Of a DNA stretch of 64,000 nucleotides, positions 15,342 to 36,859 are shown piece after piece (the first letter of the stretch is position 1; each line of letters begins with the position of its first letter). A program made the position numbers and the translations under genes. This DNA is from Anaerolineales bacterium (GTDB lineage: Bacteria; Chloroflexota; Anaerolineae; Anaerolineales; UBA11579): assembly GCA_024710875.1 (NCBI GenBank), contig JANJTX010000151.1, positions 3,173-67,172 of the forward strand, in the 5' to 3' direction. The notes beneath the pieces were generated by a model. That model saw only the letters and a list, made by a program, of their open reading frames with translations, ran no database searches and was not told the origin of the DNA.

Positions 15342-15953
15342 CTACTTCAAATACAGCCCTCGCTGCTGGATGACCGCCAGTACCGCTGGCGGCAGGTAAT
15401 AGCGGTGCGGGCGACCCTCAGCAATGCGCCGCCGAATCTGGCGCGAGGAGATTTCCAGTAACGGGGCGCGGATGAACTGCACCCGGGCGCTTACCCCCGG
15501 CAGTTTGGCCTCCAGGGTCGGCAGGTCAAAACGCTGGTAGGGCCGCCGCATCACCCCCAGAATGTCGCAGCCTTGCACAAAGTCCTGCGCCCGCCGCCAG
15601 CCGGGCAGGTCACGCAACGAATCGCCACCCATCAGAAAAGCCAGCGTGCTATCCGGGTATTGCTGGCGCACCAGTTGGACCGTATCGGCGCTGTAATGCG
15701 GGCCGGGGCGGTCAATTTCAATCGTGGAGAGTTCAAACAGCGGGTTATCGGCAATGGCGGCCTGCAGCATTTCAAGGCGCGCCACCAGCGGCGTCATCGG
15801 CCGACCGGATTTGTGTGGCGGTTGAGGCGTGAGTACCCACAGCAGACGGTCGAGCGCCAGCTGGCTGCGGGCTTCGGCTGCCAGAATCAGATGCCCCTGA
15901 TGGGGTGGGTCAAACGTGCCGCCAAAAACGCCGATACGCATCTGCTCGCTCAC
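15342..15953 (-). CDS. nadD: Nicotinate-nucleotide adenylyltransferase
   Basis: The GVFGGTFDPPHQGHL (H/T-x-G-H) motif is present and the length is about 200 aa. The track start is a GTG, and an in-frame ATG at 15941 (MRIGVFGG) is an alternative start. Confidence 0.9.
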   Translation of the reverse strand: MSEQMRIGVFGGTFDPPHQGHLILAAEARSQLALDRLLWVLTPQPPHKSGRPMTPLVARLEMLQAAIADNPLFELSTIEIDRPGPHYSADTVQLVRQQYPDSTLAFLMGGDSLRDLPGWRRAQDFVQGCDILGVMRRPYQRFDLPTLEAKLPGVSARVQFIRAPLLEISSRQIRRRIAEGRPHRYYLPPAVLAVIQQRGLYLK

Positions 15954-15988
15954 ATTACCAATTACAAGTTACCGGTTACCGACCAATT

Positions 15989-21939: not shown

Positions 21940-23598
21940 TTAGAAGGTAGCGTTGAAAGCGTCAATGGCGGCGCGCAGTTTCTTTTCGGATTCGTCCGTA
22001 AGACGCTTCTCTTCGCGAATGGCCTTGACCACTTCCGGGTGGGAGGTGTGCATAAAGCGCAGCAGGCCGGTTTCCCATTCCTGCATCCGGTCGAGGTCAA
22101 TCTCATCCGCATAGCCCTTGGTACCAGCAAAAATCGCGATGACCTGATCTTCCATTTCAACCGGCTGGTACTGGGGCTGTTTGAGGATTTCCTGCAAACG
22201 CTGGCCGCGGTTCAGGCGTGCCTGCGTGCCCTTGTCCAGGCCGGAGCCGAACTGGGCGAAGGCTGCCAGCTCACGGAAGGAGGCCATATCGAGGCGCAGA
22301 CCGCCAGCCACCTGCTTCATGGCTTTGGTCTGGGCATCGCCACCCACGCGCGAGACCGAGAGGCCAGCATTCACCGCCGGGCGAATGCCGGCGTAGAACA
22401 GGTCGCTTTCCAGATAAATCTGGCCGTCCGTGATGGAAATCACGTTGGTCGGCACATAAGCCGAAACGTCGCCTAGCAGAGTTTCAATAATCGGCAGGGC
22501 GGTCAGTGAGCCACCCGAGCCCTTGAGTTTCACCAGTTTGTAATCGGCGGCCTTGTCCATCGCCTTGAGGGCTTCTTCGGCATTGTGCTTCGCCAGCGGA
22601 CCTTCGTAGGTCTGGCCATTGGCAGCGTCTTTGGGATCGGCTTCAGACCCGGCGAAATCCTTCTTCACGATGACGAAGTTGTCCGAAAGACGGGCGGCGC
22701 GCTCCAGCAGGCGGGAGTGCAGGTAGAACACATCACCCGGGTAGGCTTCACGGCCGGGCGGGCGGCGCAGCAGCAAAGACACCTGGCGGTAAGCCCAGGC
22801 GTGCTTGGAGAGGTCGTCGTACACAATCAGGGCATCCCGACCGGTTTCCATAAATTCTTCGCCGATGGAACAACCCGCGTAGGGGGCAATGTACTGGAGG
22901 GCGGCTGATTCATCCGCCGCCGCCACCACGATGACCGTGTTGGACATGGCGCCGTTGGCTTCCAGAATGGCGACGGTGCGGGCAATGGCAGCCTTCTTCT
23001 GGCCGATAGCGACGTAGATACACACGACGCCCTTGTCTTTCTGGTTGATGATGGCGTCAATCGCCAGTGCGGTCTTGCCGGTCTGGCGGTCGCCGATGAT
23101 GAGCTCGCGCTGGCCGCGGCCGACCGGGGTCAGGGCATCCACGGCCTTGATGCCGGTCTGCACCGGGGTGTCCACGTCCTTGCGGACGATAACGCCGGGG
23201 GCGATACGTTCAATCGGGCGGAAGCCGGTGGCGGCGATGGGGCCTTTCCCGTCAATCGGTTCGCCGAGCGCATTGACCACGCGGCCAATCATGGCATCGC
23301 CGACCGGTACGGAAGCGATACGGCCGGTGGAGCGCACGGTCATGCCTTCTTCAATACCGGTGAATTCGCCCATCACGATGATGCCGACGCTTTCGGCCTC
23401 AAGGTTGAAGGCGATGCCCATCACCCCGTTATCAAACTGGACGAGTTCCTGGGCTTTCACATCCCGCAGGCCGCGGGCACGGGCGATGCCGTCGCCGGCT
23501 TCGTACACCGTACCGACGTCGCGCACGCCCAGGTCGGGCTGGAAATCCTGGATTTGTTTTTGCAGGCTGGCAGAAAGGTCTTTAAGCATGTCAGACAT
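21940..23598 (-). CDS. atpA: F1 ATP synthase alpha subunit carrying an internal insertion of about 50 aa
   Basis: Walker A GDRQTGKT and the conserved [10 protein letters not shown] block are present. At 552 aa it is longer than the roughly 500-aa alpha subunits I recall. The extra segment lies between [10 protein letters not shown] and GGSLTALP. Confidence 0.95.
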
Positions 23599-23838: not shown

Positions 23839-24708
23839 ATGCCGCCCCGCAAACGTTCAACCACCCCCCGATCCAAAGACACCCGCCTTTCAACCAGCAG
23901 CGAACTGGAAGCGTTGCGCGACCGCTTGAACAAAAAGCGGGAGTTCATTGCAATTCTGGAACTGGAGCTCTTCAACACCCGCGCCGAACTGGCCGAGTGG
24001 GGCAAGCTCTACAACCTGCGAGTCGCCCCGCTGGATGCGCGCCTGCGCCAGTTACGTCGCCGCCTCTATGAGATGCTGGAAGCCCAGCGCAGCCCCGGCG
24101 AAGACGGCCCCGAGCCCTCGGATTTCGATCTGCATGAGGAAGAACAGGCCGAAGAAGAAGCCTTTGCCTACCGTGACCGCACCAACGGCCACAATGGCAA
24201 AATCAACGGCGAGGACAAGAACGGCAAAGCCCTCAGCCCCAAACTGGAAGAAGAACTGCGCCGCCTGTTCCGCGAGCTGGCCAAACGCTTCCACCCTGAC
24301 CTGACCAGCGACCCGGACGAGAAAGCCCAGCGCGACCAGATTATGACCCGCGTCAACCAGGCCTACACCGCCCGCGACATCGAAGCCCTGCGCAAACTGG
24401 CCGATGAACCAGACCGCCCGGCCGAGCCACGCCAGAGCCGCCAGGAAGAAGCCAACGCCCTGCGCAAGGAACTCAAACGGCTGGATGGCGTGATTCAAGA
24501 CCTGAAAACCACCATCCGCGTGTTGGAAGAATCACCCGCGATGCAGCTCAAGCTGGAAGCCCGCCTGCAACGCCGCGACGGGCGCGACCTGCTGACCGAA
24601 ATGGAAGCCAGCCTCAAAGAGCAGATAGAAGACCTGGAAGAGCGCCTGCTGGTGCTGGGCGTGGACGTGCATGATGTCCACCCTGACCAGAGCGTCCCGG
24701 CCAGTTAA
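23839..24708 (+). CDS. J-domain (DnaJ-like) protein with coiled-coil regions
   Basis: The central segment LFRELAKRFHPDLTSDPDEKAQRDQIMTRVNQAY contains the HPD tripeptide. The flanks are charged and coiled-coil-like. Confidence 0.75.
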   Translation: MPPRKRSTTPRSKDTRLSTSSELEALRDRLNKKREFIAILELELFNTRAELAEWGKLYNLRVAPLDARLRQLRRRLYEMLEAQRSPGEDGPEPSDFDLHEEEQAEEEAFAYRDRTNGHNGKINGEDKNGKALSPKLEEELRRLFRELAKRFHPDLTSDPDEKAQRDQIMTRVNQAYTARDIEALRKLADEPDRPAEPRQSRQEEANALRKELKRLDGVIQDLKTTIRVLEESPAMQLKLEARLQRRDGRDLLTEMEASLKEQIEDLEERLLVLGVDVHDVHPDQSVPAS

Positions 24709-24735
24709 CTCGGCCGCCACCGCTACAAACGCATA

Positions 24736-24764
24736 CCGCGCCAGCCAACGGCGCGGTTTTTTTA
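24736..24764 (+). terminator. Rho-independent terminator
   Basis: The CCGCGCC/GGCGCGG stem is followed by T7, directly after the J-domain gene. Confidence 0.8.
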
Positions 24765-24787: not shown

Positions 24788-26332
24788 TTACTTGCTCTTG
24801 CGCCCCAGCAACCTTAATAACCGGGCGCGCACGTACTGGCTGACCAGCGCCAGCCCGGCCACGCCCACCCCAAAACCTACTCCGGCGCCCACGGCCACAC
24901 TCTGCACCCCCACCGGCGGCAGGATGGCCGCCATGCCCGCCGCCGCGCCCCACACCGCCAACCCCACCAGTAGGCCCGGCAGGTAAGCGGCCCGCAACAA
25001 ATCTACCAGCGACTGCGCCAGCGTTTTCATTAACATCGGCGGGTAGATGAGCGTGCCCTGGGCCAGCAGCACCAGCGCCCAGCCGGCCGCCGCCCCGCGG
25101 ATGCCCCAACCGCCTGCCATCAGCCCGACCGCCAGCGCCAGCCCCGCAACGCTGGCCGCCAGGAAGCCCCAACTCACCGCCCAGTGCTTGCCGACCCCCT
25201 GCAAGAGCGAGCGCGCCGCCAGTTGCGGCAGACCGACCGCCAGAGCGGCGGCCATCAGCGTCAGGGCCGCGGCGGCGGCTTCATAATCGGCATTGGTCCA
25301 GTCACTGCGTCCCAGCCACAGGCGCAGGGCGGGTTCGCCGTACACCGCCAGCCCGGCGGCGGCGCTGGCACCCAGCGCAAAAGTCACCCGCAGCACGCCA
25401 TCCGAGAGCGCCCGCAGTTGTTTTATATCGCCGCGCCCCTGGGCTTCGCTGGCCAGCGTGAGCAGCGGGTTGCCGATTTGCGAAATCAGCCCTGAAATAC
25501 GCATGATGAGCGTGAGTACCACGCCGTACACCCCGGCGGCCCCGGCCCCCAGTAGCGGCCCGGCCGCCAGCACAATCCCTTCGCGGTAAATAGAAGAGCC
25601 AAAGGCCATCACCATTGAGGCCAGCCCCAGGCCCAGTACCTCTTTGGCGAGTGGCAGGTCGGGCCGCGCCCACAGCCGCCGCCAACCGCCGCCCACCCGC
25701 CCGGCCACCGCCAGCAAAATCAGGTACTGCACCAGCGAGGCAACCGCCATCGCAATAGCCAGTGAAATCAAAGTAAAGGCGTTGAAGGCCAGCAGCCCCA
25801 GCACCAGCGCCACCCGCAAGAGTGAGTACACCGCCTGCATTCCGTTCACCCAGCCATAACGCTGGTAGCCGGTCAGCACGCCCGCCCCGATGCGCAACGG
25901 CAGGGCCAGTGCCAACCCGCTGGCACTGATGAGAAACACCGCCCGCGCTAGGGCATAATCCGCCGGTTGAATCCCCAGCCAGCCCGGCAGCGGCCCAACG
26001 ATGAACAGGCTGACCAGAAAAATCGCCCCGCCCGAGAGCGCCATCAAAAACAGGCTGGTGCTGGTTACGGCCGCCAGCTGGTGGGCATCCTCCGCGGCGC
26101 GCGCCCGCGCCACAAACCGCCCCACTGAATTGGATACACCCAAATTGGAGAGAATCAGAAAACTGATGGTCTGTCCGACGAGAGTCCAGATGCCGTACTG
26201 TTCCTTGCCCAGCGCTGCCACCATCAGCGGTAGCACCAGCAAGCTGAAAACCAGGTCAATCAGGTTGCCGAGCAGGCTGGCGGCCGAGCCGGTCAGGATG
26301 ACCGCACTCGGGTTGGGGCGCTTTTCAATCAT
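24788..26332 (-). CDS. Polysaccharide/oligosaccharide flippase (Wzx-like, MOP superfamily)
   Basis: The 514-aa protein has about 12-14 hydrophobic segments and a Gly/Ala/Leu-rich composition typical of Wzx/MurJ-type exporters. It is the last gene of the glycan operon. Confidence 0.7.
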   Translation of the reverse strand: MIEKRPNPSAVILTGSAASLLGNLIDLVFSLLVLPLMVAALGKEQYGIWTLVGQTISFLILSNLGVSNSVGRFVARARAAEDAHQLAAVTSTSLFLMALSGGAIFLVSLFIVGPLPGWLGIQPADYALARAVFLISASGLALALPLRIGAGVLTGYQRYGWVNGMQAVYSLLRVALVLGLLAFNAFTLISLAIAMAVASLVQYLILLAVAGRVGGGWRRLWARPDLPLAKEVLGLGLASMVMAFGSSIYREGIVLAAGPLLGAGAAGVYGVVLTLIMRISGLISQIGNPLLTLASEAQGRGDIKQLRALSDGVLRVTFALGASAAAGLAVYGEPALRLWLGRSDWTNADYEAAAAALTLMAAALAVGLPQLAARSLLQGVGKHWAVSWGFLAASVAGLALAVGLMAGGWGIRGAAAGWALVLLAQGTLIYPPMLMKTLAQSLVDLLRAAYLPGLLVGLAVWGAAAGMAAILPPVGVQSVAVGAGVGFGVGVAGLALVSQYVRARLLRLLGRKSK

Positions 26333-27218
26333 TCGTATAGCCTTGAAGATAGCCCAACCGCTGCGCCAGCGGCGCGGTCACGCGCCACACCGCGGCCTGC
26401 TCAGCGGCACTCAAGACATCAAAGGTCAAGTCCGGCGGCCGGATGCCGGGGAATTTCTCGCCCGCCGCCCCCACCAGCGAGCGCGCCCCCAGCACATGCC
26501 CGGGGCGCACTTCGCCGGGGCGCAGCATATCGGGCTGAAAGTCCAGGCCGAGGAATTCGCAAATGCGGGTCAGAGTGACCTGTGGTGCAGTACACAGGTC
26601 TTCATAGCGAATGTGCAGATAGGCCGTATCCGGTCGCAAGCGCGCCGCCTGCATCACGCGCTGGTTGTAGAACCGCCACTCGCGCCCCAGGTCTGCCAGC
26701 GATTGGTGCGCCCGCGCCGTGCGTTTACGAAACGAAATCACCTGCGCCAGCGGATGCTTGGTGAGGTGCAGCACCCGCGCCGGCGTGCCGGCCGCCAGCG
26801 GCAGCAACAGGTCGGCCAGCCGTTTGCGGCCAAAGAAAGCCACCGGCGCGCCGCTGAGTGCCTGTACTTGCGCCGGATAATCCAGCAAATGAGCGGTGTA
26901 GCGTTGGAGAGCCGCCGAAGTGGCGTAGAGCAGTTTTTGCAGAGCAAACAAACCCGGCAGCGAGAACACGGTTTTCAGCGGCCCGCTTTGAAATTCATCC
27001 CGCAGGGCGGCGTAGCCCGGCCAGCCCCGCAACGCGCCCCAGAATTCGCACTGCATGAACGGCTGGCCGCAGGCGCAGTGCGCCCGCTCATTGAGGTGGG
27101 CACGCAGAATCGTATCGCCGGTATGGCTGATTTGCGGGTGCGCATCCAGCAACAGGGCCAGCAACGAGTGACCGGAGGCCGAGACAGCCATGGATGCATG
27201 ATAAACCGGCTGGCTCAT
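26325..27218 (-). CDS. Sulfotransferase family protein
   Basis: Three sulfotransferase-like elements are present: a 5'-PSB-like loop SASGHSLLALLLDAHPQI, a 3'-PB-like LHLTKHPLAQVISFRKR, and a C-terminal YLHIRYEDLCTAPQVTLTRICEFLGL. ATGA overlap with the upstream gene indicates translational coupling. Confidence 0.7.
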   Translation of the reverse strand: MSQPVYHASMAVSASGHSLLALLLDAHPQISHTGDTILRAHLNERAHCACGQPFMQCEFWGALRGWPGYAALRDEFQSGPLKTVFSLPGLFALQKLLYATSAALQRYTAHLLDYPAQVQALSGAPVAFFGRKRLADLLLPLAAGTPARVLHLTKHPLAQVISFRKRTARAHQSLADLGREWRFYNQRVMQAARLRPDTAYLHIRYEDLCTAPQVTLTRICEFLGLDFQPDMLRPGEVRPGHVLGARSLVGAAGEKFPGIRPPDLTFDVLSAAEQAAVWRVTAPLAQRLGYLQGYTND

Positions 27219-27922
27219 TCCGCCGCTCGCCGCCCCATGAAAAACTCGGCCAACGCCAACCCCAAATCATCTTCCACATATACCCCGCGTTCGGGCGGCA
27301 TCTCATAATGCAGCATCGTGCGGCCATAGAATGAAGCATTGCGGATAAAGGCATCCCGCCGGGCGGCCAGCACCGCCCCATTGCGGATGTAGGGCAGGGC
27401 CAGATGCCGCCGTTGAACACCTAACGGCGCCTTGAACAGCGGCTCCAGCCGCTCGCCTTTAAGCGTGTAAGCCAGGTAGGGATTATCGTTCAGCGGCGGG
27501 CTGACGGAAATCACCGAGTCAGCCCTGGGATTATCCAGCAGCAGCTGGAGGGTGTTGTCAATATCCTCGGCGGTGCGTAACGGTGCGCCGGGCGAGAGCA
27601 AAACCACTATGTCTGGCTGGATATTTTCCGCCGCTTCCAGCCAACCCAGCGCATGCAGGGCTACCGCCACCGGAGAAATGTCCTCCCCGGCAAGGTGCTC
27701 CGGCCGGTTGAAGGGCACTTCGCCGCCATACTCACGCGCCAGTGCCCGGATGCGACCATCTTCAGTAGAAACGATGGTACGCGTGAGCAGCTGGCTGGCC
27801 TGGGCCGCCCGCAGGGTATGCACCAGCAAGGGCAGGCCCGCCAGTTGGCGGGTATTTTTTTGAATCAACCCCTGGCTGCCGCCCCGGGCCGGAACCACCC
27901 CAAATATATAGGGCTTGGACAT
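27215..27922 (-). CDS. CMP-sugar cytidylyltransferase (NeuA/KdsB family), paralog 1
   Basis: The N-terminal VPARGGSQGLIQKNTRQLAGLPLL motif matches the acylneuraminate cytidylyltransferase signature P-A-R-x-x-S-x-x-x-x-x-K-N. Confidence 0.8.
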   Translation of the reverse strand: MSKPYIFGVVPARGGSQGLIQKNTRQLAGLPLLVHTLRAAQASQLLTRTIVSTEDGRIRALAREYGGEVPFNRPEHLAGEDISPVAVALHALGWLEAAENIQPDIVVLLSPGAPLRTAEDIDNTLQLLLDNPRADSVISVSPPLNDNPYLAYTLKGERLEPLFKAPLGVQRRHLALPYIRNGAVLAARRDAFIRNASFYGRTMLHYEMPPERGVYVEDDLGLALAEFFMGRRAAE

Positions 27923-27972
27923 AGCGCTGCGCTCCTTGCCAGTGTGCGGCGATTATACAGGACAAGCCCCGC

Positions 27973-28866
27973 CTAGCTGCGGCGCGGCACAAGCCCCAGC
28001 CAGAGCGCCAAAGCATACAGCATGCGGTGGCTGTGTTTGAGGGCGTAGGCCGGGTCATTCTTCAACGCGCGGGCGTAGGCTTGCAGAGCCGGGCCGGGCG
28101 CGCCGCCATCCAGCAGGTAGCGCGCCGCCAGCCGGTGCGCCCCGCCCTGTACCCGCCGCGGGCGTTGTTGAATGCGCCGGGCCAATTCCGGCTGGGTTTG
28201 AGCCCATTCGAGAATGCGGTAGATTTCGGTACTGAAACCACCCGCCTGGGCAGTGTTCTTGGCGGCCGGGTGGTGGCGGGCCGCGGCCCACACTTGCGGC
28301 ACATAGCGCAGGCCACCCTGCTGCCCCAGCCGCAGCCACAACTGATGGTCAAGTAGAAAATGATAAGAAGGGTCCAGCAGGCCAGCTTTTTCCAGGGCGC
28401 TGCGGCGCATGAACACGCTTGGCTGGCCGATGATGCGAAAGGCCAGCAGGTCATCCAGCGTATAGGGTGCGTAACGGATGGTGTTGAAGACCTGCCCGGC
28501 CGCATCCAGCGATTCGAGGTCGCCAAACACGAACGCCAGGGTCGGGTCAGCCGCCAGCGCAGCCAGCGCCGCCTGCGCCGCCCCGGGGCGGTACACATCG
28601 TCGGAGTTCAGCCAGGCGACCACCTCGCCAGTGGCGCGCCCCAACCCTTTGTTAATCGCCTCGGCCTGGCCGCTATCCGGCTCGGAAACCCAGTAGGCCA
28701 GCCGTTCAGCGTAGCGCCGGATGATGTCCACGCTGCCATCGGTCGAGCCGCCATCCATGACGATGTACTCCAGGTTAGGGATATCCTGCCCCAGCACGGA
28801 CTGGATGGTTGCCTCCAGATAGGCAGCCTGGTTATAGGACGGGGTAATTATGGAAAGCGAAGTCAC
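27973..28866 (-). CDS. Glycosyltransferase family 2
   Basis: The protein reads SIITPSYNQAAYLEATIQSVLGQ...IVMDGGSTDGS, with a later DxD-like SDD. Confidence 0.85.
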   Translation of the reverse strand: MTSLSIITPSYNQAAYLEATIQSVLGQDIPNLEYIVMDGGSTDGSVDIIRRYAERLAYWVSEPDSGQAEAINKGLGRATGEVVAWLNSDDVYRPGAAQAALAALAADPTLAFVFGDLESLDAAGQVFNTIRYAPYTLDDLLAFRIIGQPSVFMRRSALEKAGLLDPSYHFLLDHQLWLRLGQQGGLRYVPQVWAAARHHPAAKNTAQAGGFSTEIYRILEWAQTQPELARRIQQRPRRVQGGAHRLAARYLLDGGAPGPALQAYARALKNDPAYALKHSHRMLYALALWLGLVPRRS

Positions 28867-30356
28867 GGAATGAGAGGCTTGCGCAGGTCAAAAATGGTCA
28901 GCGCGCCTTCCTGATGCAGCAGGATTTCATAGTTGGCATACAGGTGGTCGCGCAATTCGGGCTGGCGTTCCAACTGATTGTTGGTCGTGACCAGAAAGAC
29001 ATCCATACCCTCGGTGTACTGCGCCCACTGCTCGGCAAAGGACCGCGTATCCACGCCGCGCGCCTCGGCCAACGCCAGTTCGCCGGTGACCGGCCACAAC
29101 CGCACCTGGCGCCAGCCATAATAGGAAAGCGGGTAGCCGTACTGCTGGGTCAGGGCGATGACTTTTGCCTCCGGCGGTAAATGCGCCCCGACTTGAATCC
29201 AGTATTCCGGGTCTTTACGATGGTCCACCGAAAGCATTTGCGAACGCGCCAGCCAGCCCGGCAGGGCAACCGCCACCAGCGCCAGCCCGACCGCCGCCGC
29301 CCGCCAGAAGCGCGGCTGGTTGGCAAGGTGCGGCAACACTGCCGCCGCCAGCGGCGCCAGCGAGAGCGCAATCACTGGCACCAGTTGCAGGTGGTAATAA
29401 TCATGGGTGATGGTCTGGTGCGGCACCGAGAGACCGTAAAGGCCATAGCCCAGCCACAGGCCCAGCAAAGCCGCCCGGCCGGCGCCGCGCGCCAGTACCA
29501 GCCCGAACAGACCCAGAAACACAAAGGCCAGCCCCACCAGTTCGCCCAGCCACAGCGCCCAGCGGATGTAGAACTCCGGCGTGAGCAGCATCCCGGCCAG
29601 CGCCACGAACCAGGCCTGGAAATAGTTGCCGGCCGCGTCGCCGCGCCCCACAAAGTACGCCAGGAGGTTGGGGAGCAGCATCAGAGCCGCCATCGCCCAC
29701 ACCTGGCGGTTTTTGAAGGCCGCCCGCAAACCCAGCGCCTGCCACACCACCGCCACCATCAGCCCCGCCACCATATAGGCCGCAAACAGCTTCACCAGCG
29801 CCGCCAGCCCGCCGAACAACCCGGCCAGCAGGGCATACTTCCATGTTTTTTCCTCGGCCCAGCCCAGCGCCGCCCAGATAGCGAGGCACAGAAACATCAC
29901 CATCAGCGGCTCGGGCTGGAAGGAACGGCTGGCAATCACCGCAAACGGCAGAAACAGCATATACGCCAGCGATACCAATGCCGCGCCCGGAGTCGCCAGC
30001 CGCCGGGCGGCCGCCGCCAGCGCCGCGGCCGCCACCCCCCAGAACAGGATGGCATAGATACGCGCCACCCACAGTTCGGTGATGCCGGTCACGCGCCAGG
30101 TGGCCGCCACCAGCGTTTCAAAAATAGGGGGCTCAAAATCCACGATGGACTCGCGCAGCGCTACCGCGGTTTCGCGTTCAGCCTGGGTAGCTTCCGGCAG
30201 GTTCAGGTAGTAGATGCCGCGGGTGATAATCGCCGCCCGCAACTGGCGCGTGGGGCTGAAATCCAGCGGAGCATCGGTCAGGTCAATGAAACGCAGGCCG
30301 AGCCCCAGCAGGATCAGGGTGGCCATCAGCAGGAGAAAGTTTCGGTTGGTCATCAC
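28863..30356 (-). CDS. GT-C fold glycosyltransferase (ArnT/PMT_2-like, family 39-like)
   Basis: The 497-aa protein has about 11 TM segments plus a soluble C-terminal domain. An early loop FIDLTDAPLDFSP reads as an acidic motif. It overlaps the GT2 gene by 4 nt. Confidence 0.7.
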   Translation of the reverse strand: MMTNRNFLLLMATLILLGLGLRFIDLTDAPLDFSPTRQLRAAIITRGIYYLNLPEATQAERETAVALRESIVDFEPPIFETLVAATWRVTGITELWVARIYAILFWGVAAAALAAAARRLATPGAALVSLAYMLFLPFAVIASRSFQPEPLMVMFLCLAIWAALGWAEEKTWKYALLAGLFGGLAALVKLFAAYMVAGLMVAVVWQALGLRAAFKNRQVWAMAALMLLPNLLAYFVGRGDAAGNYFQAWFVALAGMLLTPEFYIRWALWLGELVGLAFVFLGLFGLVLARGAGRAALLGLWLGYGLYGLSVPHQTITHDYYHLQLVPVIALSLAPLAAAVLPHLANQPRFWRAAAVGLALVAVALPGWLARSQMLSVDHRKDPEYWIQVGAHLPPEAKVIALTQQYGYPLSYYGWRQVRLWPVTGELALAEARGVDTRSFAEQWAQYTEGMDVFLVTTNNQLERQPELRDHLYANYEILLHQEGALTIFDLRKPLIP

Positions 30357-30398
30357 GGATTAGTATACAGGAATCCGGCGGAGGGTCGGTAGCCAGTG

Positions 30399-31202
30399 TC
30401 AGAACAAGCTGGCGTAGTCCACCTTGTCAAAGACAGTCAGCTTGCCACCCACCGTCGCATCCAGCACCTGCCGCCCGGCCCGCACATAGGCCTGGCGCGC
30501 CATGCGGTAGCCGATTTCCGAAGTCTCCAGGTCCGGCAGTTGCCAGCGGAAGCCTTTGCCAAAGTAGCTGGCATGGAAATGGTCGGGGTCATCACCCGCC
30601 GAGGTGATGGTGGTGTTGGGCGTGCCCCGGGTGGCGAAGTTATGGTCCACGCCAATCAGAATCACCTGTTGAAAGCCCATGTGAAAGGCCAGTTGCAGGG
30701 CCACATAAGTAACGGTCGCCCCTTCCCACAGGCGGCCGCGCGCATCCCGGGCGAACTTAGGGCCGATGTAGGTGGTGTGCAGAAAAGAAGTGTACTCATC
30801 CAGCCCGACCCACTCACGGGCGCGCCAGGTCAGGAACTTGGGCATGTTGAGGGCCGCGATTTCAGCGGCGGTCTGTTGAATGACAAGGTCATTAACCGAC
30901 ACGAAGAAAGAGGTTTCAAAGCCCCAATCTTGAAAGGCCAGATAAATCCGGTTGAGGCCAAAGGTGTATTCGTTTTCCAGTTTGCTGACATCGGTGTGTT
31001 TCAAGCTCGGCCCGTTGCCGATGATGAAACAGCGTTCTCCTGCAAAAAGGTCTTTTTGTTCTCCCAGCCGCCGGATGCTGGCGCGCCGCCACGGGTGAAA
31101 AGTCGCCTGCGGCCACTGGCGGGCATGCAACAACCCCAGATAGGCCGCCCGGCCAGCCCGCCACACGAGTTCCGGGGTGAGTTGCTTCAGCCGGTTGCGC
31201 AT
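30399..31202 (-). CDS. DUF115 / MptE-like protein with GT42 (Cst-type sialyltransferase)-like motifs
   Basis: FIIGNGPSLKHTDVSKLENEYTFGLNRIYL parallels the recalled Campylobacter Cst-II N-terminus IIAGNGPSLKEIDYSRLPNDFDVFRCNQFYF. The later MGFQQVILIGVDHNF parallels LGYKEIYLSGIDFY. Confidence 0.65.
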   Translation of the reverse strand: MRNRLKQLTPELVWRAGRAAYLGLLHARQWPQATFHPWRRASIRRLGEQKDLFAGERCFIIGNGPSLKHTDVSKLENEYTFGLNRIYLAFQDWGFETSFFVSVNDLVIQQTAAEIAALNMPKFLTWRAREWVGLDEYTSFLHTTYIGPKFARDARGRLWEGATVTYVALQLAFHMGFQQVILIGVDHNFATRGTPNTTITSAGDDPDHFHASYFGKGFRWQLPDLETSEIGYRMARQAYVRAGRQVLDATVGGKLTVFDKVDYASLF

Positions 31203-31207
31203 GCCCG

Positions 31208-31972
31208 TTACTCGGTACTTAAGCGAGTGGTGGCCCCGCCATCCACCACCAGCGGCTGGCCGGTCATGAAGGACGATTGTTCGTTATCGGCGAGGAAATA
31301 AATCCCACGGGCGATTTCATCCGGCGTGCCAATCCGGCCGATGACGGTACGCGCCGCCAGGGCGTCCAGCCGGTCTTCTACGCTGGCGCTGCCAAAGGTA
31401 CTGCGCTTCACCCCGCCGCGTAGCATTTTGGTATCCACCGCGCCAGGCAAAATGGCGTTGGCGCGCACGCCATCCGGGGCGAACTCAATCGCCATGGCAC
31501 GCGTCAGGGCCAGCAGTGCGCCCTTGCTGGCGGCATAGGCTGCTACTTCAGCGCTGGTGGCAACCGCGTGCACCGATGCCACATTCACCACCGCCCCGCC
31601 GGCGGCTTTGAGCAGCGGGTAGGCTGCTTTGGTACACAGAAACGGCGCCCGTAGATTGACGGCCATGAGGGCTTCCCACTCTTCCAGTGAGGTATCGACC
31701 AGTTTTTTACCCAATCCTACGGCCGCGTTATTCACCAACGCATCCAGCGATTTGGTTGCGCGCTTCACCTGCTTGAAAATCACTTGGATGTCTTCGGGTT
31801 TGGCGATGTCCTGCTTGATGAATAGGCCGCTGGCCGGGAAGCCTTTACCGAACTGAATGCGGTCCACCCCAAACACCCGCCAGCCCTGGGCGGCGAAATG
31901 CAAGACCGTGGCGCGGCCAATACCGCCGGCCGCCCCGGTAATCAGTACGGTGCGCGGTGGGCTGGCGGTCAT
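31208..31972 (-). CDS. Short-chain dehydrogenase/reductase (SDR)
   Basis: The TGAAGGIGRAT cofactor motif, NNAAV, and the catalytic Y-x3-K (YAASKGAL) are present. The start is set at MTASPP, giving an ATGA overlap with the upstream gene. Confidence 0.85.
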   Translation of the reverse strand: MTASPPRTVLITGAAGGIGRATVLHFAAQGWRVFGVDRIQFGKGFPASGLFIKQDIAKPEDIQVIFKQVKRATKSLDALVNNAAVGLGKKLVDTSLEEWEALMAVNLRAPFLCTKAAYPLLKAAGGAVVNVASVHAVATSAEVAAYAASKGALLALTRAMAIEFAPDGVRANAILPGAVDTKMLRGGVKRSTFGSASVEDRLDALAARTVIGRIGTPDEIARGIYFLADNEQSSFMTGQPLVVDGGATTRLSTE

Positions 31973-32940
31973 TTCTGGTTGACCCATGTGTCCAAATCCG
32001 GATGGGGAATGTCCAGGCCCTGCAAGAGGTTGCGGATGGAATTCCAATGCACCGCTTCCCACGCCCGCGGGCTGGAGTTGGCGTTGTGGGGAGCCAGCAT
32101 GACATTGTCCATCGTCAGCAGGGGGCTGTCTTTGGGTAATGGTTCGTATTCAAAGACATCCAGCGCCGCCCCGCCGAGGTGGCTGCTTTGCAGGGCGGCT
32201 ATCAAGGCCGGCTCATCCACCAGCGGGCCACGCGCGGCGTTAATCACCACCGCGCCGGGCTTCATCTGGGCCAGCGTCTCGGCGTTCACGATGTGGCGGC
32301 TGGTGGGATTGAGGTCGCAGGTGAGGGCGACAAAGTCAGCCCCCGCCAGTAGATTTTCGAGCGAGGTCATTTCCACGCCGACTTCGGCCACAAAAGCCGG
32401 GTCAATGTCAATAATATCGGTGCCGAGCAGGGTCATGCCAAAGGCCTGCGCCCGCCGCAACGCAGCCTTGCCGATGTTGCCCACCCCCACCACGCCCAGC
32501 GTGCACTCGCCCAGGCTGTGGCCAGCGATTTTCTGCCACTCGCCGCGCTTCATGGCCGCATCCATCCACGGCTGGCGGCGGGCAAAGGCCAGCATGTAGC
32601 CCAGAATGGTATCGGCCACCGGGATGGTGAAGGCATTGGGGGTATTGCCCACCAGCACGCCGTTGGCGTTGGCAAAGGCCTTATCAATCGAGTCGATTCC
32701 TGTGCCCCACTTGGAGATCACTTTGAGGCGCGGTAGGCAGGCCTGAATGACTTCCGGGGTGTAGCGGTCATCGCCGCAGATGGTGCCGTCAAACTGCCCG
32801 GCATAAGCCAGCAGGTCGGCGGCTTCCATGCGTTCTTCCACGGCTGGCACAAGTACCTCGAGCCCGTAATAATCAAAAACGGGCTGAAAGCGTTCCCGAA
32901 AGGGAATCATGTAGGGGGCGGTCAGGAGGACGGTGGGCAT
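31969..32940 (-). CDS. D-isomer-specific 2-hydroxyacid dehydrogenase family protein
   Basis: The NAD motif GVVGVGNIGKAALRRAQAFGM is present. The catalytic-region sequences ARGPLVDE and PHNANSS are also present. Confidence 0.85.
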   Translation of the reverse strand: MPTVLLTAPYMIPFRERFQPVFDYYGLEVLVPAVEERMEAADLLAYAGQFDGTICGDDRYTPEVIQACLPRLKVISKWGTGIDSIDKAFANANGVLVGNTPNAFTIPVADTILGYMLAFARRQPWMDAAMKRGEWQKIAGHSLGECTLGVVGVGNIGKAALRRAQAFGMTLLGTDIIDIDPAFVAEVGVEMTSLENLLAGADFVALTCDLNPTSRHIVNAETLAQMKPGAVVINAARGPLVDEPALIAALQSSHLGGAALDVFEYEPLPKDSPLLTMDNVMLAPHNANSSPRAWEAVHWNSIRNLLQGLDIPHPDLDTWVNQK

Positions 32941-32970
32941 GGCGGGATTCTAACAGAGCGCGGGGCGTAG

Positions 32971-33684
32971 TTACCCGCCCCTGATTCGCTCCAGCATCAT
33001 GTACTCAGCCACTTTGAAATCCAGTTCCTCATCAATATCCACCGCTTCGTCGCGCGGGATTTCAAACATGCGCGGCCGCGCCCCAAGGCGGTGGTTACGC
33101 GCCACCAGATTTTCACGCGTGAAAATGTAAATGCAGGAGTTTTCTTCGTAAATCGGGGGGAGGTCCTGGGTGCGCAGCAGTTCGCCCGGGTTGTGGTTCA
33201 CCGCTTGCCCGGCCGCATCATACAGCCGGGTTTGTAGGCGCGTGACAGAGAACAGCGAATCGTATTCGGCCCGCCCGGCCAGAAAAGCCTGGATCGCGCC
33301 GGAAATCGTCTCGGCTTTCAGCAGCGGATTGGTGCTGTGGGTTTGCAGGTAATAGTCGCTCGGGAATGCGGCGGTGTCATGCAGCAGGATGTCGTTCATC
33401 GGGATCATGCCATCCCGCAGGTGTTCGGGGCGCAGCAGGCGTTGCACCTGTGGGTATTCTTTTTCAAGGCCTTCCAGAATCACCGGGCTATCAGTATCCA
33501 CCACCACCCGCGTAACCTCCGCGCAGGCCAGCAGGGCTTCCAGAATGTGCTGGTATAGCGGTTTGCCCGCCAACGGGCGGTAGTTTTTGCCCGGTACCCG
33601 CTCCGAGGAGTGGCGCATGGGCAGCAGGGCGGTAAGGGTGGGTGTCGCTTGGGTCACGTCTGGCTCCGCATATTCTCTCGCCAT
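32971..33684 (-). CDS. Cytidylyltransferase (NeuA/SpsF-like family), paralog 2, divergent N-terminal motif
   Basis: LLPMRHSSERVPGKNYRPLAGKPL is a P-x-R-x-x-S-x-R-x-P-x-K-N variant. The start is set at MAREYAE, because the upstream 67 codons of the track ORF look non-coding. Confidence 0.7.
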   Translation of the reverse strand: MAREYAEPDVTQATPTLTALLPMRHSSERVPGKNYRPLAGKPLYQHILEALLACAEVTRVVVDTDSPVILEGLEKEYPQVQRLLRPEHLRDGMIPMNDILLHDTAAFPSDYYLQTHSTNPLLKAETISGAIQAFLAGRAEYDSLFSVTRLQTRLYDAAGQAVNHNPGELLRTQDLPPIYEENSCIYIFTRENLVARNHRLGARPRMFEIPRDEAVDIDEELDFKVAEYMMLERIRGG

Positions 33685-33772
33685 TATACGGGAAAGCCTT
33701 CGGCAAAGGGACAACCATGCCGGATTTATGGGACATCTGCCCCTGCTCGCGTCTGTCCGCTGGGTTGACAAT

Positions 33773-33792
33773 ATATTCAGGAATTTGAATAT
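33773..33792. promoter_or_regulatory. ArsR/SmtB-type operator candidate
   Basis: ATATTCA-ggaatt-TGAATAT is a perfect 7-bp inverted repeat. It overlaps the arsR-family start codon and sits just downstream of a TTGACA hexamer at 33765-33770. Confidence 0.55.
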
Positions 33793-34153
33793 GAAACCCC
33801 CGAGCTTTGAATCCGCCGCCAGCCACACCCTGCAAGCCTTGCGCCAGCCCTTCCGCATCCGACTTTTGCGCGCCATTGGCAGCAACGAATGCTGTGTGTG
33901 CCATCTGGAGGCTCAATTGGGCCAGCGTCAGGCTTACATCTCTCAACACCTGATGGCGTTACGGGCGGCGGGTTTGCTGCGGGCACGGCGGCGCGGCAAG
34001 TTTGTGTATTACCGGCTGGCAAAACCAGCCGTGCTGGACCTACTGGAAGCCGCTGCCGCTTTGGGCGGAATAGAAGTGGAGCCGCTTCCGCTGTTGCCAG
34101 CACAAGAAGACTGCGCCTGTGCAGCCTGTCAGACATCTATAGAAGACAGATAG
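33791..34153 (+). CDS. ArsR/SmtB family metalloregulator
   Basis: The helix-turn-helix region ECCVCHLEAQLGQRQAYISQHLMALRAAGLL is an ELCVCDL-like metal site. A C-terminal Cys cluster CACAAC is also present. Confidence 0.85.
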   Translation: MKPPSFESAASHTLQALRQPFRIRLLRAIGSNECCVCHLEAQLGQRQAYISQHLMALRAAGLLRARRRGKFVYYRLAKPAVLDLLEAAAALGGIEVEPLPLLPAQEDCACAACQTSIEDR

Positions 34154-34166
34154 AAAAGGAGCTACC

Positions 34167-34412
34167 ATGTTGGAAATAAAAGTCCTCGGTCCCGGTTGCG
34201 CCAATTGCAAGCGACTGGAACAAATGGCCGAACGCGCGATCAGCGAACTTGGCCTGCAAGCCACGATCCTCAAAGTTACAGATTATGAGGAAATCATGGA
34301 TCTGGGTGTGATGAGTACCCCCGGGCTGGTCATCAACGGGCAGGTGGTCGTCAGTGGTCGTCTGCCACTGATGCAGGAAGTAAGCGACTGGCTGGCGGCC
34401 GCTGCCGGATAA
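34167..34412 (+). CDS. Small thioredoxin-fold protein (redox-active disulfide protein 2-like)
   Basis: The 81-aa protein carries the GPGCANCKRL CxxC motif and ...MSTPGLVINGQVV. Confidence 0.8.
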   Translation: MLEIKVLGPGCANCKRLEQMAERAISELGLQATILKVTDYEEIMDLGVMSTPGLVINGQVVVSGRLPLMQEVSDWLAAAAG

Positions 34413-34416
34413 CCCC

Positions 34417-35721
34417 ATGCCCACTCTGTTGAGTCTGATAGAAGTAGGCTGGCTGGCGCTGCTGGACTACCTGGCGGCGCACGTCATCCTTTGCCTGTTG
34501 CCGGCGTTCTTCATCGCTGGTGCGCTTTCCACTCTCATCCCCAAAGAGGCCATTACCCGCTATCTGGGGCCGGATGCCAGCAAGTGGGTATCGTACCCGG
34601 CGGCGGCGTTGGGCGGCTTTGTTCTGGCGGTGTGTTCCTGCACCATCCTGCCATTGTTCGCTGGCATCTGGCGGCGCGGGGCCGGGTTGGGGCCGGCGAT
34701 TACCTTTTTGTTCGTAGGGCCGGCAGTCAATATCCTGGCCATCGCCTACACCGGCGCGGCCCTGGGGCTGGACTTCGCCACCGCCCGCATTGTGCTGGCT
34801 TTAAGCTTCGGGCTCATCATCGGGTTACTAATGGCCTTTTTCTTCCGGCATGAAGTTCGGGAAAAACCCAAAGCGGCTTTTGGCAGCGAGGAACGTATCC
34901 GCCCCGCCGTTTGGGCATTTCTGGGGTTGATGATTCTGTTGCTGGTGGCGGGCACCCTCCAAATTGACCTGCTGACCAACGCGGCCCTGAGCTGGCAGAT
35001 TGCGAATCACCTGCCCAACTCTCTGCAAACCGGGCTAAACAGCCTGCACCTGACTGCACAGGGCGCCTTGCTGGTGGCGTTACTGGTGTTGCTGGGCGGT
35101 GCGGGCTGGCTGGGCCTGGAAAAGGTGCTTGACGGCTTTTCCGGCTGGACGCGCCTGGCCCTGGCGCTCGTGGCCCTGACGATGCTGGCCGCCGCGCCGG
35201 TAGTTACAGAAACCAACAGCTACCTGATTGAGATTACCGGGCGCACACTGGCCGTTACCCTGCTGCTGGCGGCCATTGCGCTGGTGGCCTGGCGCGGCTT
35301 CAGCCACAGTGAACTGGCTGGCTGGTTGTGGGAAACCTGGAAGTTCGTAAAGCAAATCTTCCCCATCCTCATTCTGGGCGTTTTCCTGGCTGGTGTAGCC
35401 CGTGCGCTGGTGCCGGGAGCGTGGGTGCAGTCATTGGCGGGCGAAAACACCCTACTGGCGAACTTCCTCGGCGTGGTATTTGGCGTATTCATGTACTTCC
35501 CCACCCTGGTGGAAGTGCCGGTTGCGCGCGCATTTCTTGACCTGGGTATGCACCGCGGGCCACTGCTGGCCTACCTGCTGGCCGACCCGGAACTCTCGTT
35601 GCAAAGCATGCTGGTTACCGGCCGCATTTTGGGGCGAAGCAAAACCATCGTGTATGTGGTGCTGGTGGCAATTTTCAGCACGGTGGCCGGGTATGCCTTT
35701 GGCTTGTGGGTAACCCCGTAA
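34417..35721 (+). CDS. Permease (ArsP/DUF318-like)
   Basis: The 434-aa polytopic protein has a conserved CSC motif (AVCSCTILPLF). It shows the usual genetic linkage to ArsR plus a thioredoxin-like protein. Confidence 0.7.
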   Translation: MPTLLSLIEVGWLALLDYLAAHVILCLLPAFFIAGALSTLIPKEAITRYLGPDASKWVSYPAAALGGFVLAVCSCTILPLFAGIWRRGAGLGPAITFLFVGPAVNILAIAYTGAALGLDFATARIVLALSFGLIIGLLMAFFFRHEVREKPKAAFGSEERIRPAVWAFLGLMILLLVAGTLQIDLLTNAALSWQIANHLPNSLQTGLNSLHLTAQGALLVALLVLLGGAGWLGLEKVLDGFSGWTRLALALVALTMLAAAPVVTETNSYLIEITGRTLAVTLLLAAIALVAWRGFSHSELAGWLWETWKFVKQIFPILILGVFLAGVARALVPGAWVQSLAGENTLLANFLGVVFGVFMYFPTLVEVPVARAFLDLGMHRGPLLAYLLADPELSLQSMLVTGRILGRSKTIVYVVLVAIFSTVAGYAFGLWVTP

Positions 35722-35758
35722 CGCGTGAATTTGTTGGGCGGGTATAATTTTCGCACCC

Positions 35759-36859
35759 ATGCCCGCCCAACTTCCGCTGGACCAGATACTGCAAGGCGAT
35801 TGCATCCAGACGCTGGCCGATTTACCGGCTGAAAGCGTGGACCTCGTCTTTGCTGACCCACCCTATAACCTTCAACTCCAAAACGACCTCTACCGCCCCA
35901 ACCGCACCAAGGTCAGCGCGGTGGACGATGCCTGGGACCAGTTCGCCGACTTTGCCGCCTACGACGACTTCACCCGCGCCTGGCTGGCAGCCTGCCGCCG
36001 GGTGCTCAAACCCAGCGGGGCGTTGTGGGTCATCGGCACTTATCACAACATCCACCGCATTGGCGCGCTGTTGCAGGACCTCGACTTCTGGCTATTGAAC
36101 TCGATTGTGTGGGTCAAAACCAACCCCATGCCGAATTTTCGCGGGGTGCGCTTTACCAACGCCCATGAAACCCTGCTGTGGGCGCAAAAAGAGCGCGGCG
36201 CGCCCTACACGTTTCACCACCACGCCATGAAGGGGCTGAATGACGACAAGCAGATGCGCAGCGATTGGGAAATCCCACTGTGCAGCGGAGCCGAGCGCAT
36301 CAAAATCAACGGCGAACGCGCCCACTCAACCCAGAAACCGGAAGCCCTGCTCTACCGGGTGATTCTCGCCAGCACCCACCCGGGCGATGTGATTCTGGAC
36401 CCGTTTTTTGGCAGCGGTACAACCGGCGCAGTCGCCAAAAAACTGCGCCGCCATTGGATTGGCATAGAACGCGACCCGGCCTATATCGAAGTCGCCCGGG
36501 CGCGCATCGCCGCCATCCCGACCCCCACAACAGCAGACACCCTGTTTGCCACGCCCAACCCGCGCAAACTGCCGCGCCTGCCCTTTGGCCGCCTGCTGGA
36601 AGCCGGGCTGCTGCAACCCGGCCAGAAACTCTTCCTTAGAAAATCTGGAGAGATTTTTGCGCAGGTACGCGCCGACGGGTTGCTGGAGTACAATCAGCAG
36701 CGCGCCTCGATTCACGCTCTGGCACGCGACCTCGCCAACGGCCCGGCCAATGGCTGGGAAGTCTGGCACTACGAGCAGGACGGCCAGCGTTACCCGATTG
36801 ACCGCCTGCGCCAGCAGTTGCGCCAGCAGGATTCTGAAATCAAAAACTCTATTTCATAA
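35759..36859 (+). CDS. Beta-class N6-adenine DNA methyltransferase, CcrM-like, no adjacent endonuclease
   Basis: Motif IV (FADPPYN) precedes motif I (DPFFGSGTTGAVA). The length of about 366 aa includes a C-terminal extension (RLPFGRLLEAGLL...) as in CcrM-type enzymes. Confidence 0.85.
   Translation: MPAQLPLDQILQGDCIQTLADLPAESVDLVFADPPYNLQLQNDLYRPNRTKVSAVDDAWDQFADFAAYDDFTRAWLAACRRVLKPSGALWVIGTYHNIHRIGALLQDLDFWLLNSIVWVKTNPMPNFRGVRFTNAHETLLWAQKERGAPYTFHHHAMKGLNDDKQMRSDWEIPLCSGAERIKINGERAHSTQKPEALLYRVILASTHPGDVILDPFFGSGTTGAVAKKLRRHWIGIERDPAYIEVARARIAAIPTPTTADTLFATPNPRKLPRLPFGRLLEAGLLQPGQKLFLRKSGEIFAQVRADGLLEYNQQRASIHALARDLANGPANGWEVWHYEQDGQRYPIDRLRQQLRQQDSEIKNSIS

Follow-up and report, generated by a model that had tools for sequence, protein, structure and literature searches.

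What does a bacterium make with two cytidylyltransferases, two oxidoreductases and a sulfotransferase, in a locus that encodes no nonulosonate synthase? The question is raised by an operon of an Anaerolineales bacterium (contig JANJTX010000151.1), found on the minus strand at positions 24788-33684 of the 64-kb window, as we call the whole stretch of genome analysed here. It is the form that a surface-glycan locus conserved across Anaerolineales takes in this lineage. Very probably it serves to build a lipid-linked surface glycan, with an acidic sugar activated by cytidine monophosphate (CMP), sulfation, flipping by Wzx and a finishing step by a GT-C glycosyltransferase. The first four of the genes make up a cassette that recurs in Alphaproteobacteria, for which we tentatively propose a synthase-free chemistry.

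Nine genes and their products

Families were called at Pfam gathering thresholds, specificities at NCBIfam equivalog cut-offs. In the order of transcription, the nine open reading frames (ORFs) are:

32971-33684, minus strand: cyt1, first cytidylyltransferase (PF02348, 110 bits; cut-off 22.6)
31969-32940, minus strand: D-isomer 2-hydroxyacid dehydrogenase, 2HADH (PF02826, 197 bits)
31208-31987, minus strand: short-chain dehydrogenase/reductase, SDR (PF13561, 184 bits; start taken from an independent gene call)
30399-31202, minus strand: DUF115/MptE-like protein (PF01973, 42.1 bits; cut-off 34.6)
28863-30356, minus strand: GT-C glycosyltransferase (PF13231, PMT_2, 59 bits)
27973-28866, minus strand: GT2 glycosyltransferase (PF00535, 96 bits)
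27215-27922, minus strand: cyt2, second cytidylyltransferase (PF02348, 65.5 bits; cut-off 22.6)
26325-27218, minus strand: sulfotransferase of the Sulfotransfer_3 family (PF13469, 54 bits; PF00685, 24 bits)
24788-26332, minus strand: Wzx-like flippase of the MOP family (PF01943, 44 bits; cut-off 28.2; weak MurJ and MatE matches)

The original prediction had described nine tightly packed genes running in one direction. The ORF coordinates, identical to those it gave, and the Pfam scores bear this out, and each product exceeds the gathering threshold of the family it had been assigned to. None of the nine reaches an NCBIfam equivalog cut-off: judged by these profiles, the families are certain and the specificities open. 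Overlaps join wzx to the sulfotransferase gene (8 nt), the latter to cyt2 (4 nt), GT2 to GT-C (4 nt) and SDR to 2HADH (19 nt); the remaining junctions are gaps of 5, 30, 42 and 50 nt. In an identical public contig, an independent gene call finds the same first four genes, cyt1 to DUF115. The ratio of non-synonymous to synonymous substitution rates (dN/dS) is 0.05-0.10 for the six genes comparable with L002, a 94%-identical relative, so these six are under purifying selection.

Both cytidylyltransferases share the PF02348 fold and the nucleotide- and metal-binding motifs of NeuA, KdsB, PseF and LegF, but score far below every equivalog cut-off. On the PseF model (cut-off 205.7 bits) cyt1 reaches 74 bits and cyt2, which is of the NeuA/PseF type, 101 bits; KdsB models give at most 47 bits on either. 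That the two are divergent, as claimed at the outset, is correct: cyt1-type and cyt2-type proteins are about 25% identical, and so are cyt1 and cyt3, the third cytidylyltransferase of the window. cyt1 forms an orthologous group of its own, with the signature M(R/K)xxS(E/Q)RxxGKN, LQTHSTNPL, TQDLxPxxEENS and DIDxxxD, and without the insert of about 20 residues of the NeuA/PseF type. Its best solved homologues are synthetases of CMP-N-acetylneuraminic acid (CMP-Neu5Ac; E 1.7e-12), aligned over the full length. The catalytic motifs of CMP-ulosonate synthetases are kept in it: the N-terminal R/K...KN loop MRHSSERVPGKN, the QD motif TQDL and the DxD metal site DIDEE.

In cyt2, LSPGAP, RRHLAL and VYVEDD of the window correspond to LQPTAP, RRQDLP and INIDDD/INIDND in the related loci L003 and L004. 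All three motifs are also altered in L002, which reads RRNLAQ in place of RRHLAL. We considered a decaying pseudogene and rejected it, as dN/dS of cyt2 against L002 is 0.08; a changed specificity seems likelier than decay, because selection is purifying despite the motif substitutions.

The 2HADH scores 204 bits on the phosphoglycerate dehydrogenase (PGDH) equivalog, whose cut-off is 454, and its best PDB matches are D-3-phosphoglycerate dehydrogenases, enzymes that run oxidatively in vivo. The chemistry of the family interconverts a 2-hydroxy acid and a 2-keto acid, the latter being what the CTP_transf_3 family of cytidylyltransferases requires. The SDR is a classical one; glucose 1-dehydrogenase 3vtz and aldohexose dehydrogenase 2dtd are near the top of its named PDB matches, with scores close to those of generic SDRs.

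The DUF115 protein consists of a single domain of 267 residues, modelled by AlphaFold2 (AF2) with a predicted local distance difference test score (pLDDT) of 86. Its PF01973 match and its top Foldseek match, the Maf flagellin glycosyltransferase 5mu5 of Magnetospirillum (E 1.4e-6, TM-score 0.49), uphold the family and the likeness to Maf that had been proposed for it. Next come M. jannaschii HPPK/MptE (8sd5, E 1.4e-4), SteA and human GT29 sialyltransferases. For the further label of GT42-like the signs are mixed: CstII lies outside the top fold matches and aligns weakly, in the region of the GNGPSLK motif alone (E ~0.09), while sialyltransferases of GT29 are among the fold matches.

A likeness to flagellin-glycosylation islands had also been suggested; the Maf-like fold agrees with it, the surroundings do not. 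No flagellin gene lies beside the operon or turned up among the window ORFs scanned, and these ORFs include none of the nonulosonate synthase, aminotransferase and dehydratase genes of a Ptm island. The Maf transferases of nonulosonic acids (NulOs) to flagellin in Magnetospirillum, Geobacillus and Clostridium share PF01973 and the fold, and close relatives of the DUF115 domain adjoin flagellin genes. Maf, however, is a multidomain protein with flanking substrate-binding domains, whereas the protein described here is a lone domain embedded in a lipid-linked glycan locus. Because this locus holds GT-C, GT2 and Wzx, the acceptor is probably a lipid-linked glycan and not a protein.

A HMMER scan with the DUF115 domain returned 6229 relatives. 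Those at 45-55% identity are often proteins of 600-2400 residues, fused to GT2, GT4, FkbM-methyltransferase and tetratricopeptide repeat (TPR) modules. Given these fusions to glycosyltransferase modules and the Maf and GT29 fold matches, we predict a Maf-like glycosyltransferase that uses a CMP-sugar, rather than a kinase. One of the relatives, at 10001-16582 of locus L082, combines, in 2193 residues, TPR repeats and a GT4 with two DUF115 domains and three GT2 stretches. It is surrounded by genes for TPR proteins, an FGE-sulfatase-domain protein, flagellin, FliD, FlaG and FliS, and looks from its domains like a giant flagellin-glycan synthase.

The GT-C enzyme was found to be ArnT-like through its AF2 model (pLDDT 92), a search of the PDB by sequence having given no match. 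It has about 13 transmembrane helices and a C-terminal alpha/beta domain, and its best folds are ArnT structures 5f15 and 5ezm (TM-score 0.56-0.58), followed by the oligosaccharyltransferases STT3, PglB and AglB; the resemblance to ArnT noted earlier is thereby borne out. The acidic residues D25, D28 and D32, in the first external loop after the first helix, are invariant. Helices, acidic loop and soluble C-terminal domain are thus common to this enzyme and ArnT, the GT83 transferase of 4-amino-4-deoxy-L-arabinose (L-Ara4N) from undecaprenyl phosphate; unlike the ArnT system, the operon has no ArnC-type synthase or Ara4N genes, and Chloroflexota have no lipid A.

The GT2 product has a GT-A fold with chondroitin synthase, PglI and SpsA, all soluble, as best PDB matches, and not GtrB or DPMS. 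We rejected it as an ArnC-like synthase of the GT-C donor, its homologues being soluble, elongating GT2 enzymes. As it resembles these and not synthases of the ArnC/GtrB type, the donor of GT-C is not explained by the operon. As to the polyprenyl-phosphate donor claimed for GT-C, a partner synthase of ArnC/GtrB/DPMS type is missing from the operon.

At the same locus position, L096 (10001-12592) encodes an 863-residue GT-C::GT2 fusion, P0440, in place of two separate genes. We discounted it as Rosetta-stone evidence: an ArnT-like topology puts the C-terminus of GT-C outside the cell, and the GT-C and GT2 genes of the window overlap by 4 nt, so that a one-base error would join them. The fusion may be a frameshift or an assembly artefact.

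A core kept in Anaerolineales, a cassette found beyond

Is the operon an invention of one lineage? DUF115 relatives were confirmed in 399 cases among GTDB species genomes, and the best 80 of these served as the synteny sample, with the nine proteins mapped and all locus ORFs clustered. These 80 are 61-94% identical in DUF115 and belong to Anaerolineales, Anaerolineae or Chloroflexota, bar one short contig labelled Aminicenantales. Six genes (cyt1, 2HADH, SDR, DUF115, GT-C and GT2) form a core that is syntenic at 45-70% identity in most of the 80 loci. The order cyt1-2HADH-SDR precedes DUF115 in 51 of 58 informative loci; downstream, GT-C is found in 52 and GT2 in 62 of 66. Sulfotransferases of three families, one to three per locus, occur in 50 of the 80.

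The tail of cyt2, sulfotransferase and Wzx is confined, among these best 80, to the closest relatives: complete in L002, complete with two extra genes in L003, partial in L004. Orthologues of the sulfotransferase and of Wzx are found in L002 and L003 only, and in L003 and L004 a methyltransferase gene and a second 2HADH gene adjoin cyt2. Instead of a one-off nine-gene invention, as which the locus had first appeared, synteny reveals a conserved six-gene core with a lineage-specific tail of three genes.

In most other Anaerolineales the core is part of a wider locus that extends over at least 20 kb. Upstream of it stand genes for a class-II aminoacyl-tRNA synthetase (aaRS)-like protein, a GNAT protein, an aminoglycoside-N-acetyltransferase-like protein, DUF4910, two Sulfotransfer_1 proteins and a GT2. 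Beyond these, on the same side, come genes for a Capsule_synth-like protein, for NeuB and for a PseF-like cytidylyltransferase. On the downstream side a further sulfotransferase gene and a second one for GT2 are followed by one of two alternative endings: either the Wzz-like, Wzy_C and InhA-like set, or dTDP-rhamnose genes together with an ABC transporter. In 11 of the 15 Anaerolineales loci with this region visible, NeuB and the Capsule_synth-like gene are neighbours at the upstream end. The upstream block has been lost in the lineage of the window, and no NeuB-family ORF exists anywhere in the 64 kb. The reported absence of a nonulosonate synthase therefore stands for the window and fails for other Anaerolineales, where NeuB is encoded in the same locus.

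On the plus strand, at a distance of 16 kb, a second glycan cluster (50135-55848) encodes two methyltransferases, one of TylF type and one of class I, as well as a third CTP_transf_3 protein, a 433-residue protein, another Sulfotransfer_3 enzyme and a GT4. Its cytidylyltransferase (51820-52560) scores 164 bits on the PseF model; with the PseF-like enzyme from other loci of Anaerolineales it shares 41% identity. The 433-residue protein (52570-53871) has no Pfam or NCBIfam match, and BLASTP against the Capsule_synth-like family of the relatives gave nothing significant. In total, the window encodes three cytidylyltransferases and two sulfotransferases, and no NeuB.

The first genes of the core recur outside Chloroflexota. 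Single-domain DUF115 relatives at 42-54% identity follow CTP_transf_3, 2-Hacid_dh and SDR genes in L083, L086/L087 and L089, in glycan loci that otherwise differ from the operon. cyt1-type genes at 55-58% identity occur in unrelated metagenome contigs. We surveyed plasmids by tblastn and read the neighbourhoods of cyt1-type and DUF115 genes in four from Alphaproteobacteria: the megaplasmid of Pararhizobium sp. A13 (58% cyt1 identity) and plasmids of Gemmobacter fulvus, Thalassovita gelatinovora and Sulfitobacter sp. D7 (45-46%). A fifth, from Acuticoccus, has cyt1-type (47%) and DUF115 matches known from tblastn alone. At every inspected cyt1-type locus, Acuticoccus not being among them, a PGDH-like 2HADH gene adjoins and DUF115 genes are near. 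The cyt1-type/2HADH adjacency is thus kept in Chloroflexota, Rhizobiales and Rhodobacterales, and the invariant unit is a cyt1-type gene with 2HADH and DUF115, SDR being usually present. No NeuB ORF was found around the cassette, within the 8-31 kb available, in the seven non-Anaerolineales loci with the cyt1-type/2HADH pair.

Some of these loci hold additional oxidative functions. An SMP-30/gluconolactonase gene is added in the Thalassovita and Sulfitobacter plasmids and in contigs L086/L087. Both plasmids have an SDR gene in the locus besides the cyt1-type/2HADH pair; of the two SDRs only that of Thalassovita was scored, reaching 280 bits on the D-xylose 1-dehydrogenase XylB model, well above the next-best models. 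A XylB-like SDR with a lactonase suggests, by family, a module that would convert an aldose to a lactone and then to an aldonate. The pairing recalls XylB/XylC of the Weimberg and Dahms pathways, but here the genes stand in a biosynthetic glycan locus and what follows them is a 2HADH, not a dehydratase; in the window a lactonase is lacking.

The company kept by the cassette on these plasmids includes the routes to other nucleotide sugars. The Thalassovita locus encodes complete dTDP-rhamnose and CMP-Kdo pathways (Kdo being 3-deoxy-D-manno-oct-2-ulosonic acid), with KdsA, KdsB and KpsF directly before SDR, lactonase and DUF115. GDP-fucose genes are found in the Gemmobacter and Pararhizobium loci, the former also encoding a sulfotransferase. 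L093 (Thalassovita gelatinovora pAge77) and L092 (Gemmobacter fulvus p5) are non-mobilizable plasmids of cultured Rhodobacterales, in which the cassette is accompanied by rfbABCD, kpsF, kdsB, kdsA, the XylB-like SDR, the lactonase, GalE and GDP-fucose genes, and by the sulfotransferase in Gemmobacter.

A proposed synthase-free route and its rivals

Families, folds, synteny, linkage across phyla and purifying selection, as given above, are observations. From them we infer all the substrates, the order of the steps, the sulfation and the acceptor in the following scheme.

The SDR would oxidise an aldose at C1, with the help of a lactonase where there is one. The PGDH-like 2HADH would then turn the C2 hydroxyl of the aldonate into a keto group, giving a hex- or pent-2-ulosonic acid; a synthase of NeuB/KdsA type, condensing phosphoenolpyruvate (PEP), would not be needed. 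With CTP, cyt1 would form the CMP-sugar of this acid, and the minimal Maf-like DUF115 protein would transfer the residue onto a lipid-linked glycan at the cytoplasmic face. GT2 would add a sugar from a nucleotide donor, cyt2 could supply a second CMP-activated acid with a precursor made elsewhere, and the sulfotransferase would add sulfate. After Wzx has flipped the lipid-linked unit, the ArnT-like GT-C would act outside the cytoplasm, either with a donor linked to polyprenyl phosphate or by placing the glycan on its final acceptor.

We favour the synthase-free route for five reasons. It agrees with what each family is known to catalyse; cytidylyltransferase and 2HADH genes are repeatedly found as a pair, in L003 and L004 even two times; some loci include a XylB-like SDR and a lactonase; the plasmid loci are devoid of NeuB though they encode pathways for other nucleotide sugars; and chemistry offers a precedent in the hexulosonic acid from the capsule of E. 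coli K3. This is a 4-deoxy-2-hexulosonic acid whose locus was genetically unassigned as of 2023 (PMC10433991). Maf enzymes, for their part, accept several CMP-ulosonic acids: Neu5Ac, Kdo, pseudaminic acid (Pse) and legionaminic acid (Leg) (bioRxiv 10.1101/2020.06.03.131540).

The full model, from aldose or aldonate through the 2-ulosonic acid and its CMP-sugar to Maf-like transfer, remains tentative. A broader claim, to be taken as a single one, is doubtful: that cyt1, 2HADH, DUF115 and, where present, SDR constitute an undescribed way of making a short 2-ulosonic acid without a synthase and activating it with CMP; that this residue, frequently accompanied by sulfate, is a conserved building block of the Chloroflexota envelope in Anaerolineales; and that the cassette also explains residues of the hexulosonic-acid type in proteobacterial capsules and O-antigens.

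Several points weigh against the scheme. The activity of the cassette is predicted from its genes, and the thermodynamics of 2HADH enzymes usually favours reduction. The SDR of the window has no specific aldose-dehydrogenase signature and is just 32% identical to the XylB-like SDR of Thalassovita; in Pararhizobium and Gemmobacter no SDR is present beside the cyt1/2HADH pair; and neither the window nor any of the 80 Anaerolineales loci encodes a lactonase. With NeuB nearby in most Anaerolineales loci, the cassette could act on the NeuB product.

Other objections concern the later steps. The catalytic motifs of cyt2 are non-canonical. The 5'-phosphosulfate loop of the sulfotransferase, SASGHS, is without the usual K/R; its KHPLAQVIS (KHPxxxxxS) resembles a 3'-phosphate-binding (3'-PB) motif, and no cysC/cysDN was detected among the window ORFs scanned. 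In comparison with Wzx/Wzy-dependent loci, Wzx is present, but Wzy, a chain-length regulator and a priming phosphoglycosyltransferase are missing among the nine genes and their flanks; in relatives their place is taken by Wzy_C and Wzz-like genes or by an ABC transporter. As read, the assembly line is incomplete, with no priming enzyme, Wzy or polyprenyl-phosphate-sugar synthase.

The main rival, which we consider rather unlikely, is a remodelling: SDR and 2HADH would epimerise a NeuB-derived NulO (or Kdo) from elsewhere in the genome by oxidising one of its hydroxyls and reducing it again, cyt1 would be the dedicated synthetase that activates the epimer anew, and DUF115 would transfer it. Such a remodelling has a precedent in Acinetobacter baumannii prophages, where EpaA, a fusion of CTP_transf_3 and a reductase, and EpaB, an SDR, convert Pse to 8-epi-Pse (PMC12053666). 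There, too, a CTP_transf_3 domain and two oxidoreductase activities (one from an SDR) are combined in a small module, whose product is a new CMP-ulosonic acid; the fused reductase, however, is an aldo-keto reductase, whereas the operon has a separate PGDH-like 2HADH, and the Epa module requires a Pse pathway, whereas no NulO synthase is encoded in the window or in the cassette loci outside Chloroflexota.

Remodelling would further agree with the NeuB genes of the 11 loci and the PseF-like cytidylyltransferase upstream in several, with the DUF4910, aaRS-like, GNAT and N-acetyltransferase genes that accompany the core in most relatives, and with the Thalassovita Kdo genes next to SDR, lactonase and DUF115. 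DUF4910 itself has been tied to modified-sugar clusters with DUF115 and NeuB-type synthase genes, a study in which the present cassette is not described (PMC4000134). Against this, a 2HADH acts next to the carboxylate, which in a NulO is the anomeric C2, and a reduction there would block CMP activation. Neither the window nor the available surroundings (8-31 kb) of the seven non-Anaerolineales cyt1-type/2HADH loci contain NeuB, the lactonase and XylB-like SDR of three contexts would have no role, and the cyt1/2HADH pair of Pararhizobium and Gemmobacter is found with no SDR beside it.

The phosphoglycerate dehydrogenases nearest to 2HADH point to another possibility, which is improbable: a polymer resembling teichoic acid, in which 2HADH and SDR make a hydroxy-acid or polyol phosphate (glycerate, phosphoglycerate), cyt1 links it to CDP or CMP and DUF115 is a phosphotransferase that releases CMP. 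The nucleotide-binding fold of DUF115 is indeed common to pyrophosphokinases and to CMP-releasing sialyltransferases, and an SDR and a cytidylyltransferase make CDP-ribitol in Bcs1/TarIJ systems. But cyt1 aligns full-length with CMP-Neu5Ac synthetases and keeps the QD and DxD motifs, while to our knowledge the enzymes that form CDP-alcohols belong to other families, IspD/TarI and TagD; IspD models give about 20 bits on a cyt1-type protein, and the best fold match of DUF115 is a glycosyltransferase.

It is very improbable that DUF115 is an MptE-like pyrophosphokinase and that the cassette makes a soluble metabolite or cofactor instead of a glycan residue. The Pfam family is named after MptE and M. 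jannaschii HPPK is its second-best fold, but Maf fits better, the domain is found fused to GT2, GT4, FkbM and TPR modules (one such protein beside flagellin genes), and GT2 and GT-C genes nearly always follow DUF115 in the loci examined. Lastly, it is scarcely credible, for all the generic Wzx, GT2 and sulfotransferase genes, that the locus is an ordinary one for O-antigen or capsule, variable between strains and with a characterised orthologue: the core is kept throughout the order at 45-70% identity, no equivalog cut-off is reached, no description of the locus was found in the literature, and Chloroflexota are without lipopolysaccharide (LPS) pathways (PMC13319060).

Boundaries, neighbours and meaning

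Where does the operon begin and end? Two elements mark its probable limits:

24735-24757: G+C-rich hairpin directly after the stop codon of wzx, in the gap between this gene and the convergent DnaJ-like gene
33685-33790: divergent intergenic region of 106 bp between cyt1 and an ArsR-type (HTH_5) gene

The hairpin is a probable terminator, with its T-run on the plus strand. The intergenic region is the probable promoter region, judging by a TATAAT at 33688-33683; a consensus promoter scan upstream of cyt1 found no full sigma-70 match. Since the ATG of cyt1 at 33684 overlaps this TATAAT box, and the GTG at 33657 has a GGAG 6 nt upstream and gives 228 residues, against 224-230 in homologues, the GTG is the likelier start on these features.

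The flanks are unrelated to the glycan operon. Below it are ATP synthase subunits and the DnaJ-like gene, above it genes for an ArsR-type regulator, a thioredoxin, an ArsP permease, a DNA methylase and an M3 peptidase. On the upper side, the diverging genes at 33791-36859 (plus strand) encode the HTH_5 regulator, Thioredoxin_3, the ArsP permease and the DNA methylase, which is of the N6/N4 kind and contains a RAMA domain; the methylase gene also adjoins cyt1 in L004. On the lower side, 23839-24708 (plus strand), between the ATP synthase genes and the operon, encodes a charged, coiled-coil-like protein of 289 residues with a sub-threshold J-domain match, and shares the hairpin with the operon. 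The ATP synthase alpha subunit (21940-23598, minus strand; 552 residues) matches Pfam in two stretches of its nucleotide-binding domain, which suggests an insertion inside that domain. Farther away, five MFS-type transporter genes lie within 13 kb (968-13768), together with genes for a GNAT-domain protein and an S9/alpha-beta hydrolase.

How does the locus compare with what is known? The original prediction did not recognise the combination as a described pathway, and we likewise found no paper describing it; literature on the gene combination, on Anaerolineae sulfotransferases and on Chloroflexota nonulosonic acids yielded nothing specific. Among short or sulfated ulosonic-acid glycans, the hexulosonic acid of E. 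coli K3 offers a chemical likeness. Marine Rhodobacteraceae reportedly make sulfated, Kdo-containing O-polysaccharides. A polysaccharide operon as such is ordinary; what is unusual is a core kept across the order, the density of sulfotransferases, and a cassette that crosses phyla and for which no function was found.

The layered envelope of Chloroflexota has no LPS, and its outer layers are thought to be polysaccharide or protein (PMC13319060). An order-wide locus with up to three sulfotransferases offers a genetic handle on this envelope. The cytidylyltransferase/2HADH/DUF115 cassette could stand for a nucleotide-sugar pathway and, in Maf-like enzymes, a donor specificity that are both new, and could help to assign orphan sugars such as the K3 hexulosonic acid. 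Its carriers belong to Chloroflexota and Alphaproteobacteria and include several cultured strains: the hosts of the Gemmobacter and Thalassovita plasmids are tractable organisms in which to test it. Finally, sulfated acidic polymers of Anaerolineae would bear on the extracellular matrices of microbial mats.

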